Sequence record: NC_047899.1 | Direction: 5' to 3' (one strand) | DNA: 44,895 nt | Origin: Escherichia phage VEc3 | In this document: positions 716 through 8,938 of the stretch, one piece after another | How positions within the stretch are numbered: position 1 is the stretch's first letter | Layout: each line of letters opens with the position of its first letter | Notes under the pieces: generated by a model | Database searches by the model: none | What the model was told of the DNA's origin: nothing | What the model saw: only the letters and a program-made list of their open reading frames with translations | Program-made: the position numbers and the translations under genes

Positions 716-744
716 TTGACATAGGTAATAGCTGGTAGTACATT
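716..744 (+). promoter_or_regulatory. Candidate host sigma70 early promoter (TTGACA-N17-TACATT)
   Basis: Perfect -35 TTGACA at 716-721, 17-bp spacer, -10 TACATT at 739-744; same architecture as 1348-1376. Confidence 0.55.
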
Positions 745-777
745 ACAGTCATCGGGAGGCAACATAGCCAAACGGTA

Positions 778-807
778 GGTAACTAAGTTACCTTGCTCTT
801 TAACAAT
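778..807 (+). promoter_or_regulatory. Hairpin plus rrn-type boxA (GCTCTTTAACAAT), candidate Nus antitermination site 1
   Basis: Hairpin GGTAAC-TAA-GTTACC at 778-792 followed by GCTCTTTAACAAT at 795-807; matches the E. coli rrn boxA core. Confidence 0.6.
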
Positions 808-865
808 TTGCTTAGTGTAACCTGTGTATGCCGTGGTTAATTACTTATTGAATGAGGAATTAACT

Positions 866-964
866 ATGAATTACGAAAAACTGTATAAAGCCTATTACTA
901 TAACGCATTAGTGAGAGGAGAAGAGCCTTTGTCTTATGCTGAGTTTGTGGAGGCTTTATCATGA
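866..964 (+). CDS. Small early ORF (32 aa), hypothetical
   Basis: ATG at 866 preceded by GAGG; stop overlaps next start (ATGA); not in the supplied track (below length cutoff). Confidence 0.3.
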   Translation: MNYEKLYKAYYYNALVRGEEPLSYAEFVEALS

Positions 965-1137
965 CTCTAACTAACCGTGAACTATCCGTTCTCTTCACCT
1001 TGTTATGCTACATGATTCGTAACAACGAATTGCTTACAGATGACGAGTTAGCCTTGTATCACCGCTTTCTGAACGAAGGTTGGACCGATACAGTTAACCA
1101 GAAACGTGACCTGATGAAGGAGCTAACCAATGTTTAA
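961..1137 (+). CDS. Small early ORF (58 aa), hypothetical
   Basis: ATG at 961 overlapping upstream stop; ends overlapping the start of ORF 1130. Confidence 0.35.
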   Translation: MTLTNRELSVLFTLLCYMIRNNELLTDDELALYHRFLNEGWTDTVNQKRDLMKELTNV

Positions 1138-1339
1138 ACATGAGATTTACACGGATTGCAATAAATCGGCTAAAGCTATCTGCGATTTGTACAAGGCAGA
1201 ATGTCAGACGTACAACCTCAACGATGGTACTGAGATGTTTTATCTTCAGTTTGAAAGCAAGTTATCTCACAAACGAGTGATTAACAGCCTGAATCAACAC
1301 TCCTTGGAGTGGGAAGAAGTAAATAGCAATAAAGTTTAA
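1130..1339 (+). CDS. Hypothetical early protein (69 aa)
   Basis: Track ORF; translationally coupled to the upstream small ORF. Confidence 0.5.
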   Translation: MFKHEIYTDCNKSAKAICDLYKAECQTYNLNDGTEMFYLQFESKLSHKRVINSLNQHSLEWEEVNSNKV

Positions 1340-1347
1340 ATTAACTA

Positions 1348-1376
1348 TTGACAGCCACGGCATACAAGGTTACATT
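1348..1376 (+). promoter_or_regulatory. Candidate host sigma70 early promoter (TTGACA-N17-TACATT)
   Basis: -35 TTGACA at 1348-1353, 17-bp spacer, -10 TACATT at 1371-1376. Confidence 0.55.
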
Positions 1377-1383
1377 AAGCATC

Positions 1384-1422
1384 AAGACGGCGACGTCTTT
1401 AAACATCCCGCTCTTTAACAAT
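1384..1422 (+). promoter_or_regulatory. Hairpin plus rrn-type boxA, candidate antitermination site 2
   Basis: Hairpin AAGACG-GCGA-CGTCTT at 1384-1399, then GCTCTTTAACAAT at 1410-1422. Confidence 0.6.
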
Positions 1423-1464
1423 AAGGTTTGTGTCTTGATAGGCTAACTAACTAAGGTAATTATC

Positions 1465-1575
1465 ATGAAAGGTTTAATTTGTGTAGAACGTATGGTCAAT
1501 GGTAAACTTGAAATATTACCACTGGAAAACCAATCTAGCTTCAAAGAGTGGTATGGCTGTTTCTCACTGATTTAA
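1465..1575 (+). CDS. Small early ORF (36 aa), hypothetical
   Basis: ATG at 1465 with AAGG upstream; below track cutoff. Confidence 0.3.
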   Translation: MKGLICVERMVNGKLEILPLENQSSFKEWYGCFSLI

Positions 1576-1581
1576 GGTAAA

Positions 1582-1630
1582 GGCTGGCACTAGTCAGCCT
1601 ATCAAGGCGCAAACCAAGCTCTTTAACAAT
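1582..1630 (+). promoter_or_regulatory. Hairpin plus rrn-type boxA, candidate antitermination site 3
   Basis: Hairpin GGCTGGC-ACTAGT-CAGCC at 1582-1599, then GCTCTTTAACAAT at 1618-1630. Confidence 0.6.
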
Positions 1631-1726
1631 TTGGATGGTAGCTTCTTAGTCTGGATAGGTTAAACCTAGGGGATTCTCTTGAGTCTCCTATAATGTAACC
1701 TAACTAACTAAATGAGGATTAACAAC

Positions 1727-2080
1727 ATGGCTATGTCTAATATGACTTACTCTCAGGTTTACAACACTGCTCATGCTGCACTGGTTGAACGCGTATGGGA
1801 TGATGCCATTGATTGTATTGATAACGCACATGATGCAATCCATGAGGTAGCGGACAGTGCTGTACCAATCTATTATGCTGACATCTTCTCAGTGATGGCC
1901 AGTGAAGGCATCGACCACTTCTTCGAGGATTCTGGCTTAATGCCAGACACTAAGGATGTGACGGTCGTACTACAAGCCCGTATTTATGAACAACTCACCA
2001 TTGATTTATGGGAACGTGTTCAAGATATGATTGATGCGTACATCGATTCCGCTGAGGATTCAGAAGAAGAAGAGGAATAA
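1727..2080 (+). CDS. ocr: Ocr-like DNA mimic (T7 gp0.3 homolog), anti-restriction
   Basis: 117 aa from ATG 1727 (GAGGA RBS); begins MAMSNMTY and contains [15 protein letters not shown] and [13 protein letters not shown]...[15 protein letters not shown] blocks recalled from T7 Ocr; acidic tail DSEEEEE; track ORF start at 1712 is probably too early. Confidence 0.85.
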
Positions 2081-2082
2081 GA

Positions 2083-2196
2083 ATGGAAAAGCTATACAAC
2101 TTCATCTTTTCAGACGGTGTAACCCTGAAGTGTTCCCTACGATTCGCTCAGATTCGTGAGGAAGTGCTAGGTACTACATACAAACTATTTAGCTGA
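2083..2196 (+). CDS. Small early ORF (37 aa), hypothetical
   Basis: ATG 3 nt after the ocr stop; below track cutoff. Confidence 0.3.
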   Translation: MEKLYNFIFSDGVTLKCSLRFAQIREEVLGTTYKLFS

Positions 2197-2210
2197 CACT
2201 ATAAGAGAAG
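2187..2210 (+). promoter_or_regulatory. Phage-promoter-like element, variant ATTTAGCTGACACTATAAGAGAAG
   Basis: Matches the SP6-type promoter except the conserved +1 G is A. Confidence 0.35.
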
Positions 2211-2272
2211 GCTTAACAAGGCGTTGCTACGGTAGCGCCTGATTAAACTTTCACTTACTAGAGGTTAAAATT

Positions 2273-2398
2273 ATGAAACTATCGCCATCCGCTAAAGGCC
2301 TCATTGCAGAACTTAAAGACTCTTTGAGGAATCCAATCATTTGGGCACTTATCTACATACCTTATGGTATCTACCTATTTCACCTCATCACTGAGTAA
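2273..2398 (+). CDS. Small hydrophobic early protein (41 aa)
   Basis: ATG 2273 with GAGG upstream; hydrophobic C-terminal segment IIWALIYIPYGIYLFHLI. Confidence 0.35.
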   Translation: MKLSPSAKGLIAELKDSLRNPIIWALIYIPYGIYLFHLITE

Positions 2399-2430
2399 AT
2401 AGCCTATAGCCTACCTATGTGGGCTATGTG

Positions 2431-2453
2431 ATATTTACTTACACTATAAGGTG
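2431..2453 (+). promoter_or_regulatory. Phage-promoter-like element, variant ATATTTACTTACACTATAAGGTG
   Basis: Resembles the phage promoter but with A at +1 and TTAC for TGGA. Confidence 0.35.
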
Positions 2454-2459
2454 ATTAAT

Positions 2460-3383
2460 ATGACTACTGAAAACACCCTTCTGTCTGTTCGTGAAGCTGC
2501 AACCGCTGAAATCAAGCAGCACTTAGACAATATCGGCACTTCTTACATCAAAGTTGGCGCTTGTCTGAATGAATTACGCGGTGATTTCGAAGGTCAAAAA
2601 GACTTTTTAGCTTATGTAGAATCAGAGTTCGGCATCAAGAAAGCACAATGCTACAAGCTGATGAGTGTAGCCCGTGTCTTTGAAGGAGACGAACGCTTTA
2701 AAGGTGTGGCTATGCGTGTAATGCTGGCGCTTGTTCCTTTCGCTGATGAAAATATAATCATGGAGAAGGCCGCAGAACTCGCCGCAGAGGGCAAGCTGGA
2801 CACTAACGCCGTAAACGCCCTGATTGATCCTAAGAAAGAGACAAAGGCCGAGACGGTACAATCTAAGGTTGAGTCGGTAAAACCGCAGGAGAACGCGACT
2901 GAGGCCGCAGAAACTATGCAAGGACATGCAACCTTTGAGGATTTCATATTAGAGAAGGCGAAAGAGGAGCTACAAAGTGTGCCGCCAGCAAGTGAGTCTG
3001 GTAACGACGAATCCGCACCGTGGGAAGACAAAAGCAAGCAGGAAGACACAAAGGCAGCGCCACGGGATAACACGGCTAACACCGAGAGTGCCGCTATTGC
3101 TGGCCTTCTGGCACAAATTAAAGCACTGACCGAGCAATTACAGGCAGCTAATGACCGCATTGCCTCCTTAAGCAGCGCACGCGAAAGCAAGAAAGCAGCC
3201 GCGCCTATGCTGCCGCAATTCAAATCTTCCTGCTTCTATGCTCGCTTAGGTTTAAGCGCTGAGGAGGCAACGAAGAAAACAGCAGTTAACAAGGCACGCC
3301 GCGAACTGGTTAAGCTAGGCTACGGCGAAGGCCATGAAGCATGGCCCTTAATCTCTGAGGCAGTAGAAGAATTAACTAAGTAA
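2460..3383 (+). CDS. Early protein (307 aa): conserved N-terminal domain, acidic low-complexity linker, coiled-coil, C-terminal domain
   Basis: Track ORF 2451-3383; ATG 2460 preferred (AAGG 8 nt upstream); occupies the slot of T7 gp0.7 but has no kinase motifs; N-terminal domain resembles a DUF3102-type phage domain (by recall). Confidence 0.7.
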   Translation: MTTENTLLSVREAATAEIKQHLDNIGTSYIKVGACLNELRGDFEGQKDFLAYVESEFGIKKAQCYKLMSVARVFEGDERFKGVAMRVMLALVPFADENIIMEKAAELAAEGKLDTNAVNALIDPKKETKAETVQSKVESVKPQENATEAAETMQGHATFEDFILEKAKEELQSVPPASESGNDESAPWEDKSKQEDTKAAPRDNTANTESAAIAGLLAQIKALTEQLQAANDRIASLSSARESKKAAAPMLPQFKSSCFYARLGLSAEEATKKTAVNKARRELVKLGYGEGHEAWPLISEAVEELTK

Positions 3384-3446
3384 CCTTATCGGTGGCATCT
3401 TCTTAGGTGTCACCTATTAAGGTTTCTTTCACTAGGAGTAAACAAG

Positions 3447-6074
3447 ATGCAAGACCTACACGCTATTCAACTTCAACTTGAAGAAGAAATGTTTAACGGC
3501 GGTATCCGTCGCTTTGAAGCGGACCAACAACGCCAGATTGCATCCGGTAATGAATCAGACACGGCATGGAATCGCCGCTTATTGTCCGAGTTAATCGCGC
3601 CAATGGCTGAAGGCATTCAGGCATACAAGGAAGAGTATGAAGGTAAAAGAGGCCGTGCACCGCGTGCATTAGCTTTCATTAACTGCGTAGAAAACGAAGT
3701 GGCAGCATATATCACGATGAAAATCGTTATGGATATGCTGAACACGGATGTAACCTTGCAGGCTATAGCCATGAATGTAGCTGACCGCATTGAGGACCAA
3801 GTACGTTTTAGCAAGCTGGAAGGTCACGCCGCCAAATACTTTGAGAAAGTTAAGAAGTCACTTAAGGCAAGTAAGACTAAATCATATCGCCATGCGCACA
3901 ACGTAGCGGTCGTGGCTGAGAAGTCAGTAGCTGACCGTGACGCTGATTTCTCTCGCTGGGAGGCGTGGCCTAAAGATACCTTGCTACAAATTGGTATGAC
4001 CTTGCTAGAAATACTGGAAAATAGTGTATTCTTCAATGGTCAGCCTGTCTTTCTTCGCACCTTGCGCACTAATGGTGGCAAGCATGGCGTTTACTACTTA
4101 CAGACTAGCGAACACGTGGGTGAATGGATAACTGCATTTAAAGAGCACGTAGCTCAGCTGAGTCCAGCCTATGCGCCTTGCGTTATTCCTCCTCGTCCGT
4201 GGGTTTCTCCGTTTAATGGTGGCTTCCATACTGAGAAAGTAGCAAGCCGTATTCGTCTAGTAAAAGGCAATCGTGAGCACGTCCGCAAGCTGACCAAAAA
4301 GCAAATGCCAGCGGTTTACAAGGCTGTTAACGCTTTGCAGGCGACTAAGTGGCAGGTTAATAAAGAGGTTTTGCAGGTAGTAGAGGACGTTATTCATCTC
4401 GACCTTGGTTATGGTGTGCCTTCCTTTAAACCACTCATCGACCGTGAGAACAAGCCAGCTAATCCAGTGCCGTTAGAGTTCCAGCACCTGCGAGGCCGTG
4501 AATTGAAAGAGATGCTAACACCGGAGCAATGGCAGGCCTTCATCAACTGGAAGGGTGAATGTACTAAGCTGTATACCGCTGAGACTAAGCGCGGCAGCAA
4601 GTCGGCGGCGACCGTCCGCATGGTAGGACAGGCCCGTAAATACAGCCAGTTTGACGCTATTTATTTTGTATATGCACTGGATAGCCGTTCACGCGTTTAT
4701 GCGCAATCTAGCACGCTCTCGCCGCAATCAAACGACTTAGGCAAGGCATTGCTCCGTTTTACCGAAGGGCAGCGTCTTGATAGCGCTGAGGCGCTTAAGT
4801 GGTTTTTGGTGAACGGGGCGAATAACTGGGGTTGGGATAAGAAAACTTTTGACGTGCGCACCTCTAACGTGCTGGATGGCGAATTTCAAGACATGTGCCG
4901 CGACATTGCAGCCGATCCGCTGACCTTCACTCAATGGGTAAATGCTGATTCCCCTTACGGCTTCCTTGCATGGTGCTTTGAATATGCGCGTTATCTGGAT
5001 GCACTGGATGAAGGCACGCAAGACCAATTCATGACGCATCTACCCGTCCATCAAGACGGTAGTTGCTCTGGTATCCAGCACTATAGCGCGATGTTACGCG
5101 ATGAAGTAGGTGCGAAAGCAGTAAACCTTAAGCCTTCTGACTTCCCTCAAGATATTTATGGCGCAGTCGCGCAGGTTGTTATCCAGAAGAATTACGCCTA
5201 CATGAATGCAGACGATGCAGTGACTTTCACATCTGGAAGCGTCACACTTACAGGTGCAGAACTGCGTAGCATGGCTAGTGCGTGGGATATGATAGGAATC
5301 ACTCGCGGATTGACCAAAAAGCCCGTAATGACACTACCTTATGGCAGCACACGTCTAACCTGCCGTGAATCAGTGATTGATTATATCGTTGATTTGGAAG
5401 AAAAAGAGGCCCAACGAGCTATTGCGGAAGGGCGTACCGCCAATCCTGTACATCCTTTTGATAATGACCGTAAGGACAGCCTGACACCTAGTGCAGCTTA
5501 TAACTATATGACGGCTTTAATCTGGCCTTCTATTTCGGAAGTGGTTAAAGCTCCTATAGTGGCAATGAAAATGATTCGTCAGCTTGCCCGTTTCGCAGCT
5601 AAAAGGAATGAAGGCTTAGAGTATACCTTGCCTACTGGCTTCATCTTGCAACAAAAGATTATGGCTACCGACATGCTACGCGTATCCACTTGCTTGATGG
5701 GTGAAATCAAGATGAGTCTACAGATTGAGACTGATGTAGTGGATGAAACGGCTATGATGGGCGCTGCTGCTCCTAACTTTGTTCACGGGCATGATGCTAG
5801 TCATCTCATCCTGACTGTATGTGACCTCGTTGACAAGGGCATTACATCCATCGCAGTCATCCATGATTCTTTCGGTACTCACGCAGGCCGTACAGCCGAT
5901 CTACGTGATAGTCTAAGGGCAGAAATGGTGAAGATGTATCAAGGCCGTAATGCCCTGCAAAGCCTGTTAGATGAGCATGAAGAACGCTGGTTAGTAGACA
6001 CCGGAATCCAAGTGCCAGAGCAAGGAGAGTTTGACCTTAACGAAATCTTAGTATCTGACTATTGCTTCGCATAA
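3447..6074 (+). CDS. DNA-directed RNA polymerase, single-subunit, SP6-type
   Basis: 875 aa; begins [32 protein letters not shown] and contains [27 protein letters not shown] and IHDSFGTH motifs; ends ...DYCFA like T7-family RNAPs. Confidence 0.95.
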
Positions 6075-6082
6075 TATTAATA

Positions 6083-6116
6083 GGCCATTCCTTCGGGAGT
6101 GGCCTTTTCTTTTACC
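6083..6116 (+). terminator. Rho-independent terminator after the RNAP gene
   Basis: GGCCATTCC-TTCG-GGAGTGGCC stem-loop (UUCG tetraloop) followed by TTTTCTTTT. Confidence 0.7.
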
Positions 6117-6147
6117 TACTACCGGTAACATTTCATTAACATAAAGT

Positions 6148-6163
6148 GTCTCACATGTGAGAC
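6148..6163. repeat. 16-bp perfect palindrome GTCTCACATGTGAGAC (copy 1)
   Basis: Exact palindrome immediately upstream of the phage promoter at 6166. Confidence 0.8.
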
Positions 6164-6165
6164 TT

Positions 6166-6188
6166 ATTTACCGGACACTATAGGATAG
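6166..6188 (+). promoter_or_regulatory. Phage RNAP promoter (ATTTACCGGACACTATAGGATAG)
   Basis: Matches the ATTTACyGGACACTATAG core; predicted +1 G at 6183. Confidence 0.6.
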
Positions 6189-6329
6189 CCGTCGGAGACG
6201 GGAAAGAAAGGGAAGATAAAGGATATAAAAGGAAGTAATAGGTATTAAAGGCTATATAGGTTATCTAGGAATACCTATTACCTTCTTCCTTCCTCTTATT
6301 ACTACTTAGAGGAAGGGCAGATCTAGGTT

Positions 6330-6345
6330 GTCTCACATGTGAGAC
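6330..6345. repeat. 16-bp perfect palindrome GTCTCACATGTGAGAC (copy 2)
   Basis: Exact palindrome immediately upstream of the promoter at 6351. Confidence 0.8.
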
Positions 6346-6350
6346 TTCGT

Positions 6351-6373
6351 ATTTACCGGACAGTATAGATAAG
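6351..6373 (+). promoter_or_regulatory. Phage RNAP promoter variant (ATTTACCGGACAGTATAGATAAG)
   Basis: Consensus-like with C to G at -5; precedes the HNH gene. Confidence 0.5.
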
Positions 6374-6395
6374 ACTAACTTACTTTGGAGGTTAC

Positions 6396-6812
6396 ATGCG
6401 TAAATCATTAGCTCAAAGAGTAGAGCAAGCAGGTTATACTATACAAGACGACGGTACTATCAAAGGTAAGCGAGGTAACATCTTGAAACCTTGGCTTCAA
6501 TCTTCAGGTTATCCAGTTGTAAATATAGTATTCAAGAAAGGTACAAAGACAACTACCCTTGTGCATCGCATAATTGCTAGTAAGTATTGTCCTTGCTCTG
6601 ACCCGTTGGCTAATGATGTAAACCACAAAGACGGAATCAAGACTAATAATGCAGCTTCTAATCTTGAATGGATTACACGTAGGCAGAACCGTAATCACTA
6701 TTTAGGTTTTGAGGACTATATGACACTTACGGCAGAGGATGCCCGTAAGAAGAATAATGAGCGCACTATTGCTCGACGTAAATTACTTAAACAGTTGAAT
6801 AATAAGGACTAA
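6396..6812 (+). CDS. HNH homing endonuclease
   Basis: 138 aa; VNHKDGIKTNNAASNLEWITRRQNRNH motif; AT-rich relative to neighbours. Confidence 0.85.
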   Translation: MRKSLAQRVEQAGYTIQDDGTIKGKRGNILKPWLQSSGYPVVNIVFKKGTKTTTLVHRIIASKYCPCSDPLANDVNHKDGIKTNNAASNLEWITRRQNRNHYLGFEDYMTLTAEDARKKNNERTIARRKLLKQLNNKD

Positions 6813-6814
6813 TT

Positions 6815-6946
6815 ATGCGTACTAACTTCGAAAAGATGACCCGTAAAGCTAACCGTTTTGACATGGAAGAAGGGCAGAAGAAAGGCAAGAAGCTGAATGT
6901 ACCTGTCCGTGACCGTGCATCTAAACGCGCTGCGTGGGAGTTCTAA
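6815..6946 (+). CDS. gp1.1-like small basic protein (43 aa)
   Basis: MRTNFEKMTRKANRFDMEEGQKKGKKLNVPVRDRASKRAAWEF resembles recalled T7 gp1.1 (MRNFEKMTKRSNRNARDFEATKGRKLNKTKRDRSHKRSWEGQ); AAGGA RBS. Confidence 0.5.
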   Translation: MRTNFEKMTRKANRFDMEEGQKKGKKLNVPVRDRASKRAAWEF

Positions 6947-6949
6947 GTT

Positions 6950-8938
6950 ATGGCTATTATTCAGAATGTACCGTGTCCTGCCTGTCAAAAGAATGGACAT
7001 GATATTACTGGCAACCATCTTATGATATTTGAGGATGGCGCTGGTTACTGTAACCGTGGTCACTTCCATGATAACGGTAAACCTTATTACCACAAGCCGG
7101 AAGGTGGCATCGAGATAACCGAGTTACCTATTACTGGCAATATCAAATATACACCTTCTCAATTCAAAGAAATGGAGAAGGAAGGGAAGATAAGCGACCC
7201 TAAGCTACGCGCCATCGCACTTGGTGGTATGCGTATGAAAGACCGTTGGGAGGTTATGAATGAGCAAGAAAGGGCAGACCAAGAAGCAGAGTGGAAACTT
7301 GATGTTGAATGGTTCCTCACGCTTAAGCGTAAGAACCTTGTATCCCGTCACATTCGAGGTGACATCGCAGCAATGTACGATGTGCGCGTTGGACACGATG
7401 AAGAGGGAAGAGTCAACCGTCACTATTATCCACGATATGAAAAGGGTGTGCTTGTTGGAGCAAAATGCCGGACGTTGCCGAAGGATTTTAAGTTCGGACA
7501 CCTAGGTAAACTCTTTGGTATGCAAGATCTTTTCGGTATGAACACTTTGTCTCACGTGTTAGACAAGGGGAGACGAAAGGATTGCTTGCTTATTGTAGGC
7601 GGTGAACTTGATGCACTAGCAGCGCAGCAGATGCTCCTTGATTCTGCCAAGGGTACTAAGTGGGAAGGCCAGCCATACCATGTATGGTCTGTCAACAAAG
7701 GTGAGTCTTGCCTTGAAGAGATAGTGCAGAACCGTGAGCATATCGCCCAATTCAAGAAGATTATTTGGGGCTTTGATGGGGATGGGGTTGGGCAGAAGCA
7801 GAACCAGCAAGCGGCTCGCCTGTTTCCCGGCAAATCCTATATCCTTGAATATCCTTCTGGTTGCAAAGATGCCAACAAGGCATTGATGGCTGGCAAGGCT
7901 AAAGAATTTGTGGATGCTTGGTTTAATGCAAAGTCATCTGATGAAGTCTTTGGTAGCCAGATTAAATCTATCGCATCTCAAAGAGATAAGCTCAAGGCTG
8001 CACGTCCAGAACAAGGGCTGTCATGGCCTTGGCCTAAGCTAAACAAGGTAACACTGGGTATCCGTAAGAACCAGCTTATCATTATAGGTGCAGGCTCTGG
8101 TGTAGGTAAGACTGAGTTCCTCCGTGAAGTAGTTAAGCATCTCATTGAAGAACACGGTGAATCTGTAGGCATCATTTCTACAGAAGACCCGATGGTCAAG
8201 GTGTCCCGTGCTTTTATCGGTAAGTGGATTGATAAGCGTATTGAGTTACCTCCAACCAATGACCCGAAAGAAGACGGATACCGTGAGGTGTTCGACTACA
8301 CCGAGGAAGAAGCTAACGCCGCCATTGATTATGTAGCTGATACAGGTAAGCTGTTTGTAGCTGACCTAGAAGGTGACTATTCGATGGAGAAGGTAGAGCA
8401 AACTTGCCTAGAGTTTGAGGCCATGGGTATTTCTAATATCATCATTGATAACTTAACGGGGATTAAATTAGATGAGCGTGCTTTTGGTGGGAAGGTTGGT
8501 GCACTTGATGAATGCGTCAAGCGGATTGGTACTATCAAAGACAGACACCCAGTTACTATATTCCTTGTATCACACCTTACACGTCCTCCGGCAAACCGTA
8601 CCCAACACGAAGAAGGTGGCGAGGTTATCCTTTCTGACTTCCGAGGCTCAGGAGCTATCGGATTCTGGGCATCTTACGCCTTGGGGATTGAGCGTAATAC
8701 AAGAGCTGAAACGCTTGACGAAAGGACTACCACGTATATCTCATGTGTCAAAGATCGCGACCAAGGTATCTTCACCGGAACCAAGATTATGCTTAAGGGT
8801 GATATTCAAACCGGACGTTTGAGAGAACCACAGGCTAGAACAAGGTCATTTGATACAGGTGAAGCAAGGCAACAAGAAGTGCCGGATTTACCGGACACTA
8901 TAGAAGAGACAACTTTTGACGATGAACAGGAGTTTTAA
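6950..8938 (+). CDS. DNA primase/helicase (gp4-like)
   Basis: 662 aa; N-terminal Cys4 zinc ribbon (CPACQ...CNRGHFH); Walker A GAGSGVGKT; acidic C-terminus ending ...DDEQEF. Confidence 0.9.
   Translation: MAIIQNVPCPACQKNGHDITGNHLMIFEDGAGYCNRGHFHDNGKPYYHKPEGGIEITELPITGNIKYTPSQFKEMEKEGKISDPKLRAIALGGMRMKDRWEVMNEQERADQEAEWKLDVEWFLTLKRKNLVSRHIRGDIAAMYDVRVGHDEEGRVNRHYYPRYEKGVLVGAKCRTLPKDFKFGHLGKLFGMQDLFGMNTLSHVLDKGRRKDCLLIVGGELDALAAQQMLLDSAKGTKWEGQPYHVWSVNKGESCLEEIVQNREHIAQFKKIIWGFDGDGVGQKQNQQAARLFPGKSYILEYPSGCKDANKALMAGKAKEFVDAWFNAKSSDEVFGSQIKSIASQRDKLKAARPEQGLSWPWPKLNKVTLGIRKNQLIIIGAGSGVGKTEFLREVVKHLIEEHGESVGIISTEDPMVKVSRAFIGKWIDKRIELPPTNDPKEDGYREVFDYTEEEANAAIDYVADTGKLFVADLEGDYSMEKVEQTCLEFEAMGISNIIIDNLTGIKLDERAFGGKVGALDECVKRIGTIKDRHPVTIFLVSHLTRPPANRTQHEEGGEVILSDFRGSGAIGFWASYALGIERNTRAETLDERTTTYISCVKDRDQGIFTGTKIMLKGDIQTGRLREPQARTRSFDTGEARQQEVPDLPDTIEETTFDDEQEF
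8886..8908 (+). promoter_or_regulatory. Phage RNAP promoter embedded in the primase/helicase 3' coding sequence
   Basis: ATTTACCGGACACTATAGAAGAG, full consensus; +1 G at 8903; encodes ...DLPDTIEE... Confidence 0.65.

Follow-up and report, generated by a model that had tools for sequence, protein, structure and literature searches.

Why should the early region of a virulent phage carry three copies of a signal from the ribosomal RNA (rRNA) operons of its host? The question is raised by the left end of Escherichia phage VEc3 (sequence record NC_047899.1; 44,895 nt, the whole of which is referred to here as the window), where the 13-mer GCTCTTTAACAAT occurs three times in front of the gene for the phage RNA polymerase (RNAP). 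An earlier note on this DNA had taken the 13-mers for boxA elements that recruit the host NusB/NusE antitermination complex, so that host RNA polymerase would read through early terminators to the ocr and RNAP genes. The analysis described here supports the idea of recruitment but not the terminators as its target. Both the number of copies and the presence of a third copy that lacks a promoter would become intelligible through a feature that the earlier note had missed: directly behind every boxA runs one strand, the 5′ one, of a long RNA helix.

The three copies (Table 1) are the only ones in the window, as had been claimed, and no more appeared even when two mismatches were allowed; 0.01 exact occurrences are expected by chance, and none of 100 shuffled sequences reached three. 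Their 12-mer core is that of the leader boxA of E. coli rrnB, which was read directly from the MG1655 genome, and at the first copy T794 and TT808-809 extend the rrnB match to 16 nt (TGCTCTTTAACAATTT). All three fit the published functional boxA consensus GYTCTTTAANA (PMC5725501) and the rrn form TGCTCTTTAACAA. Outside the 13-mer the copies are 63–74 % alike, so they do not represent one long duplicated block. An Rfam scan of the whole window returned no family at threshold, and boxA is unannotated in the GenBank records of T7, T3, phiYeO3-12, SP6 and K1E. The three 13-mers are very probably functional boxA elements, that is, loading sites for Nus factors.

The elements lie where host RNA polymerase alone can read them, because the window has no plus-strand phage-type promoter before 2194 (the earliest are at 2194 and 2439); the host-transcribed leader of the earlier note is thereby confirmed. 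Predicted promoters that follow the sigma-70 consensus precede the first copy by 50 nt and the second by 33 nt, again as claimed; the third has none of its own. No convincing intrinsic terminator was seen between the promoters and the RNAP gene (744 to 3447), so that readthrough of early terminators has no visible target. A terminator-like match at 777-793 was rejected, being merely the first upstream hairpin with the U-rich boxA behind it. Recruitment of NusB/NusE is well supported as the most economical reading of sense-strand, rrn-type boxA elements that stand in rrn order under purifying selection. The benefit to the phage is more likely to lie in Rho resistance, faster elongation and RNA folding or processing than in terminator readthrough.

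Relatives were gathered from IMG/VR by means of the RNAP protein and not by means of boxA, which avoids circularity, and GYTCTTTAANA was then counted. BLAST with the 13-mer was unsuitable because the match is too short, and was replaced by exact-pattern and RNAP-anchored scans of IMG/VR. At RNAP identities of at least 40 %, 37 of 39 relatives have one to four sense-strand boxA copies 5′ of the RNAP gene. These comprise all 26 loci in which RNAP is at least 60 % identical (one to three copies, 1.6–3.4 kb 5′ of the gene) and 11 of the 13 loci at 40–60 % identity (one to four copies, 1.8–3.7 kb 5′). None of the 21 loci at 32–34 % identity, mostly metagenome-derived (environmental) contigs, contained boxA, which suggests that the design is limited to certain host lineages. 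Upstream sites in the loci of at least 40 % RNAP identity number 89 on the sense strand against one on the antisense strand, and the downstream ∼460 kb of all 60 counted loci hold no sense site and one antisense site. Among the instances with distinct flanks 70 of 85 are exact, and the single mismatches (15/15) fall at positions 2 and 10, the degenerate Y and N of the consensus; the upstream flanks are highly diverse. Of the named phages, K1E has three copies, SP6 has two and a third with one mismatch, and T7, T3 and phiYeO3-12 have one each, that of T7 being placed between promoter A3 and gene 0.3. The search of related phages that the earlier note had called for therefore shows that the 13-mer is not a chance motif. 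By these counts boxA is under strong purifying selection and bears the signature of an RNA signal recognised by NusB–NusE, not of a duplicated block.

Conservation extends somewhat further downstream. The five bases past the 12-mer (807-811, 1422-1426 and 1630-1634 in the window) have, with the relatives, the consensus T-n-T-G-G (T 63/85, T 72/85, G 76/85, G 59/85). The spacer boxA of E. coli rrnB is followed by TCTGG, and the T7 group shares these bases (TCTGG/TTTGG). They may form an extended recognition element, or simply be a conserved helix start.

The 5′ strand of a long helix begins 2–4 nt downstream of each boxA. The helix behind boxA1, S1, has 29 pairs (ΔG −48.1 kcal/mol, z −8.1) and encloses three small open reading frames (ORFs); S2, behind boxA2, has 19–25 pairs (ΔG −44.4 kcal/mol, z −9.0) and encloses one. 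Paired cells amount to 98 % in S1, where six pairs show compensatory changes, and to 93.5 % in S2, where compensatory changes affect four pairs in 14 cells; none of 500 shuffles matched either result, and slid controls reached at most 44 % paired. S3, which lies between boxA3 and the ocr ribosome-binding site, is a local hairpin that resembles the RNase III sites of T7 in shape. Its lower stem is kept in relatives, and its upper stem is swapped wholesale for unrelated self-complementary sequences; this result comes from single-sequence folds, RNAalifold having given no structure and MAFFT having been unable to align the replaced stems. All three helices offer intercistronic double-stranded RNA of at least about 20 bp in the early transcript, the mark of T7-type RNase III sites.

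The arrangement is general among the relatives. At 28 non-redundant, RNAP-ascertained loci (42–100 % RNAP identity), 40 of the 44 neighbouring boxA pairs are linked by a duplex of −35 kcal/mol or below; the median is −46 kcal/mol, against −17 in positional controls. These linking duplexes start 1–3 nt past the 12-mer and end 0–30 nt before the next boxA, and their sequences are unrelated between lineages. Vibrio phage Vc1 provides an example: four boxA copies stand 5′ of its RNAP gene (locus L156, 3094-3996), and helices of −40 to −44 kcal/mol, unrelated in sequence to the window's own, connect the last three, so the cassette design is not confined to enterobacterial phages. The sense RNA is the stabler strand in 33 cases and the antisense RNA in eight (p = 9e-7), and about 10 % of the pairs are G·U, which marks the helices as RNA features of the early transcript.

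Copy number also varies by whole modules. Three close relatives (L127, L131 and L140) have two boxA copies only and lack exactly the boxA2–boxA3 module, which corresponds to 1410-1630 of the window. In them the second copy has on its 5′ side the flank of the window's boxA2 and on its 3′ side that of boxA3, a pattern that recombination at boxA, by deletion or insertion of the module, would produce.

Each boxA in the window is preceded by a stem-loop, as the earlier note had reported, in the boxB-then-boxA order of rrn leaders (rrnB has a hairpin, 3 nt and boxA). At the position of hairpin 1, SP6 has AGGTAGC/GCTGCCT, which amounts to one exchange of A-U for G-C. Hairpin 2 is kept in many relatives and replaced in others by different short hairpins or by none. 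Hairpin 3 has 83 % of cells paired across relatives, with weak covariation, and shares part of its 3′ arm with the 3′ strand of S2. In the relatives as a whole the 40 nt before boxA fold with a ΔG of −6 or below in 67 % of cases, against 43 % of control windows (Mann–Whitney p = 1e-5), and the median ΔG is −7.35 against −5.2 kcal/mol in control windows from the same region. Hairpins that vary and are sometimes missing fit the rrn arrangement and speak against a lambda-type boxB that binds a specific protein.

The closest parallel is offered by the rRNA operons themselves. In E. coli rrnB the base next to the leader boxA is the first of the 16S helix 5′ strand, whose partner lies just past the 16S 3′ end; farther on, the spacer boxA (GCTCTTTAAAAA) leads straight into the 5′ strand of the 23S helix. 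The phage shares with rrn the identical boxA 12-mer, the succession of hairpin and boxA, a helix 5′ strand of 25–40 bp right behind boxA with its 3′ strand hundreds of nucleotides on (PMC10250234; PMC4807359), a second boxA after the first helix and before the next, and a strong intrinsic terminator that closes the unit. Read at the sequence level, the phage early unit reproduces the rrn design: promoter or promoters, hairpin, boxA, leader strand, payload, trailer strand, next boxA and helix, terminator. It differs from rrn in that its loops are translated ORFs of 0.14–0.55 kb and not structural RNAs of 1.5–2.9 kb, in that one trailer strand contains a promoter, P2, and in that three modules are packed into 900 nt.

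What is known of rrn suggests how such a unit might work. The antitermination complex of the rrn operons comprises NusA, NusB, NusE, NusG, SuhB and S4. NusB/NusE bound to boxA remains tethered to the polymerase through SuhB, with the nascent RNA looped out (PMC4807359), and in the model discussed for rrn the anchored leader strand is positioned to pair with the emerging trailer; the structure of the helix counts more than the sequence of boxC (PMC10250234). The assembled rrn complex doubles transcription speed, suppresses pausing and Rho, and increases co-transcriptional cleavage by RNase III (bioRxiv 10.64898/2026.03.17.712431).

From the sequence identity, position, strand and conservation of boxA, the helices with their covariation and the rrnB parallel, we infer factor binding, looping, cleavage by RNase III and reloading in the following order. 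Host RNA polymerase would initiate at P1 or P2. NusB–NusE(S10) would bind the nascent boxA and, with NusA, NusG and SuhB, form an rRNA-type antitermination complex (rrnTAC), and the modified polymerase would elongate faster, pause less and resist Rho. The tethered boxA would keep the helix 5′ strand beside the polymerase until it could pair with the 3′ strand, made 140–550 nt later. S1, S2 and S3, which bracket small early-gene cassettes, would most likely serve as RNase III processing and messenger RNA (mRNA)-stabilising sites like the R sites of T7. Once a helix was cut, the polymerase would lose its link to the bound boxA, and the fresh boxA behind each trailer (boxA2 after S1, boxA3 after S2) would reload the complex; under this proposal there are three copies, the third without a promoter, because reloading is needed after each cleavage. 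That the boxA elements load Nus factors onto host polymerase, each coupled to a leader–trailer helix as a processing site, appears probable on the present analysis. That the helix coupling itself acts as proposed is favoured a little less firmly, at slightly better than an even chance.

Several observations weigh against this reading. BoxC (TCTGTGTGGG) is not conserved after the phage boxA, copies 2 and 3 included; a likeness to it (CCTGTGTATG) 14 nt past copy 1 was dropped, relatives having CCTATGTATG. About one third of the boxA copies in relatives have no hairpin before them, and where there is one, its sequence, loop and spacing vary. The S1 3′ strand doubles as promoter P2, so part of the conservation of S1 is a constraint at the DNA level, and one relative (L138) retains the S1 5′ strand without its partner. 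The T7 group, with its five RNase III sites, has a single boxA, and a reload for every cut can therefore not be a general need. In the main-text passages on nusB, nusA, nusG and suhB of a paper on host-factor screens (PMC7553319), knock-down of nusB or nusG is discussed as protective against lambda only and not against T7 or T3, and boxA may be dispensable in the laboratory. Modules that have been exchanged or deleted, moreover, have their junctions at boxA copies. Lastly, we infer binding, antitermination and cleavage in these phages, all three, from computation.

The same facts have to be held against four other accounts. Plain antitermination would have boxA load Nus factors against Rho or weak terminators before ocr and RNAP, with the helices as independent processing or stability elements. 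It can call on the strong conservation of boxA, on the single boxA and five RNase III sites of T7, on long untranslated leaders and tiny ORFs that are plausible Rho targets, and on reporter constructs in which boxA alone gives Rho resistance (PMC4807359). No intrinsic terminator was seen before the RNAP gene, however, and this account leaves unexplained why the helix starts 1–3 nt past boxA in 40/40 linked pairs with unrelated helix sequences, and why the promoter-less boxA3 stands 2 nt past a trailer strand; we consider it unlikely. The helices bear equally on a reading of the 13-mer as a DNA-level element, either a recombination junction of early-gene cassettes or the site of a DNA-binding protein, and not an RNA signal. 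Rich in G·U pairs, they favour the sense RNA; the strand bias (89 to 1), the identity with a host RNA signal and the restriction of mismatches to positions tolerated by NusB/NusE-dependent function point the same way. It is true that the two-copy relatives lack exactly the boxA2–boxA3 module and that in relatives the left and right flanks of boxA occur in independent combinations. An identity of 13 nt is nevertheless short for homologous recombination, and use as a junction is possibly a by-product of conservation, which leaves the DNA-level reading quite improbable.

Strand and adjacency also tell against a decoy, by which a flood of boxA RNA would titrate NusB, NusE and SuhB off the rrn operons and harm ribosome synthesis, any effect on phage transcription being secondary. 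For this purpose boxA would not have to adjoin helices on the sense strand; these phages already have other means of host shut-off, and their lytic cycle is short relative to ribosome turnover. Three copies of the highest-affinity version of boxA behind strong (predicted) promoters would suit a decoy, as would the small boxA-bearing RNAs that RNase III cleavage in S1 and S2 would free, and high-level nut RNA is said to titrate Nus factors and to lower rRNA expression (in work known from its citation in PMC4807359). The decoy is very improbable all the same. The hairpins that adjoin all three boxA copies could, finally, be taken for part of a lambda-type nut site on which a phage-encoded N-like protein is needed. 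The lambdoid nut site resembles the elements described here in that host Nus factors, acting through boxA RNA, make RNA polymerase processive. Lambda differs in its order, boxA then boxB, in its weaker boxA (CGCTCTTA) and in the N protein that acts on a conserved boxB. The phage has the reverse, rrn-type order, and its hairpins vary in sequence, loop and spacing among copies and relatives and are sometimes missing, so that the combination of boxA with a conserved boxB bound by an N-type protein does not occur. The small early ORFs have no arginine-rich motif or antiterminator family match, and the full rrn version of boxA works without N. A nut site of the lambda type is accordingly extremely improbable.

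The T7 group resembles the SP6/K1E group in having a sense boxA between host promoters and an RNase III-type hairpin just 5′ of ocr/gene 0.3. In T7, T3 and phiYeO3-12 boxA lies 30–40 nt 5′ of the annotated RNase III site R0.3, in the order boxA, R0.3, gene 0.3, and boxA3 with S3 is the direct counterpart in the window. The early R sites of T7 are established RNase III processing and mRNA-stabilising sites. In the T7 group there is one boxA with local hairpins only, whereas the SP6/K1E group has two or three boxA copies and two long-range, gene-enclosing helices. The T7 boxA was reportedly remarked on earlier in the T7 literature, without a demonstrated function. Also considered was a T7 internalisation fragment whose toxicity on cloning was overcome by the loss of 45 bp; its authors put this deletion at the gene 0.3 ribosome-binding site, and it is uninformative on boxA.

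Cellular counterparts exist in the suhB 5′ untranslated region and in the leaders of clustered regularly interspaced short palindromic repeat (CRISPR) arrays, where rrn-type boxA (GYTCTTTAANA) likewise stands on non-ribosomal transcripts (PMC5725501; PMC7665894). The cellular elements are single; they repress suhB or protect long untranslated arrays from Rho, and are not known to have a paired leader–trailer helix.

Nus factors and boxA are generally regarded as a device for rRNA, lambdoid phages and a few cellular leaders, and the role assigned to boxA at rRNA has lately shifted from antitermination to looping-assisted folding and RNase III processing. The rrn-type boxA, the Nus-dependent modification of RNA polymerase and the RNase III processing of T7-like early RNA are already known. 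A combination of boxA with SP6, K1-5, T7-like phages or Autographiviridae was not found in the open-access literature, from which the subscription literature may differ, and boxA goes unmentioned in a paper on SP6-like Salmonella phages. No description of serial boxA–helix cassettes on mRNA, conserved from enterobacterial to Vibrio phages, was found in the open papers and database records examined. We tentatively propose, at rather less than an even chance, that where a virulent phage relies on host RNA polymerase for its first genes, its early operon is a series of rrn-like cassettes. In these, Nus factors and SuhB would serve beyond antitermination as an RNA-looping chaperone that brings the leader strand to the trailer strand across translated ORFs, RNase III would excise stable mRNAs co-transcriptionally and the next boxA would reload the complex. 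The cassette order of this tentative proposal is promoter, hairpin, boxA, leader strand, genes and trailer strand; it would hold for the SP6/K1E group, Vibrio Autographiviridae, the T7 group in reduced form and possibly the pre-early region of T5-like phages.

If true, this would be the first use of the chaperone function of the rrnTAC on mRNA. The phage family would offer a small, tractable and non-essential mRNA system, with the boxA–helix geometry in triplicate, for testing the looping or chaperone model outside the ribosome, and the proposal could explain the boxA of T7-like phages, a role for which has never been shown as far as was found. It bears on how soon an infected cell makes ocr and the phage RNA polymerase and possibly, in phages whose genome entry is driven by transcription, on the speed at which the DNA is pulled in. 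BoxA and the helices are unannotated in every record examined, and phage engineering that deletes or moves early cassettes could disrupt helices or take away sites for reloading.

A possible case outside these groups is Proteus phage PM135 (L025, 104 kb), in which four boxA-consensus sites lie at 6053-7045, in a region annotated with the A2 protein, the product of a T5-type pre-early gene. At least three of the four stand ∼20 nt 3′ of a TTGACA-type promoter. T5-like phages may thus also use rrn-type boxA.

Table 1. Features of the early region of phage VEc3 in window coordinates, in order of position.
Feature	Position	Strand	Remarks
Promoter P1 (TTGACA-17-TACATT)	716..744	+	10/12 consensus; predicted; start expected ~751
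Hairpin 1 (AGGTAAC-TAA-GTTACCT)	777..793	+	7 bp; boxB-like position, 1 nt 5′ of boxA1
boxA1 (GCTCTTTAACAAT)	795..807	+	exact
S1 5′ strand	809..838	+	pairs with 1353-1381; inverted repeat
Three small early ORFs inside S1	866-964, 961-1137, 1130-1339	+	PHROG families 2061, 9275, 6403, all with function-less annotations
Promoter P2 (TTGACA 1348-1353, TACATT 1371-1376)	1348-1376	+	10/12 consensus; predicted
S1 3′ strand	1353..1381	+	overlaps promoter P2; ends at about the P2 start site
Hairpin 2 (AAGACG-GCGA-CGTCTT)	1384..1399	+	6 bp, GCGA loop; at 5′ end of P2 transcript, 10 nt before boxA2
boxA2 (GCTCTTTAACAAT)	1410..1422	+	exact
S2 5′ strand	1425..1449	+	pairs with 1591-1615; inverted repeat 25 nt, 88 %
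Small ORF inside S2	1465..1575	+	36 aa; no family match
Hairpin 3 (AGGCTGGC-ACTA-GTCAGCCT)	1581..1600	+	8 bp, z −3.3
S2 3′ strand	1591..1615	+	ends 2 nt before boxA3
boxA3 (GCTCTTTAACAAT)	1618..1630	+	exact; directly behind S2 trailer strand
S3, local two-stem hairpin	~1639..1718	+	approximate, from minimum free energy fold; ΔG −30.4, z −3.8
ocr-like anti-restriction gene	1727..2080	+	phrog_2568, 8e-49; first gene past last boxA
Phage RNAP gene	3447..6074	+	final gene of host-transcribed unit
Strong intrinsic-terminator-like hairpin and T run	6082..6105	+	10 bp, 6 G-C pairs, TTTTCTTTT; 3′ of RNAP gene; likely end of early transcription

The first 1.8 kb of the window are up to 98.5 % identical to Vectrevirus genomes (K1E-like, Molineuxvirinae, Autographiviridae), and by this comparison the window is a Vectrevirus of the K1E/SP6-like type. 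Its left end follows the order of two sigma-70-type promoter matches, several tiny ORFs, the ocr-like gene, the RNAP gene and a strong terminator-like hairpin; a homologue of P1 occurs at the equivalent position in SP6. The S1 trailer is formed by the spacer, −10 region and start region of P2, so that P2 transcripts would begin where P1 transcripts cut by RNase III would. In the distant relatives L156 and L158, too, trailer strands contain promoters of the type TTGACA-17-TAAGAT.

Some minor sequence features were noted in the same region and beyond it. On the minus strand at 1684-1698, within the 3′ arm of S3 but on the opposite strand, TTACATTATAGGAGA has two mismatches to the phage-promoter core of the window (2194-2208 and 2439-2453); this may represent a phage promoter that points leftward, or have arisen by chance from the helix. 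The exact repeat CTAACTAACTAA (1443-1454 and 1700-1711), which is kept in relatives, presents TAA in all three frames just 5′ of the ribosome-binding sites of the ORF at 1465 and of ocr, and looks like an all-frame translation stop ahead of each cistron. Between the terminator of the RNAP gene and an endonuclease ORF (6396-6812; HNH_3, Pfam 2.6e-08), the 16-nt palindrome GTCTCACATGTGAGAC is found in two exact copies (6148-6163 and 6330-6345), which may have a regulatory role or be associated with a homing endonuclease. Ahead of the early promoters, the non-coding left end (∼190-500) contains many short repeats of the CTTAGT and CCTTAGTG type.

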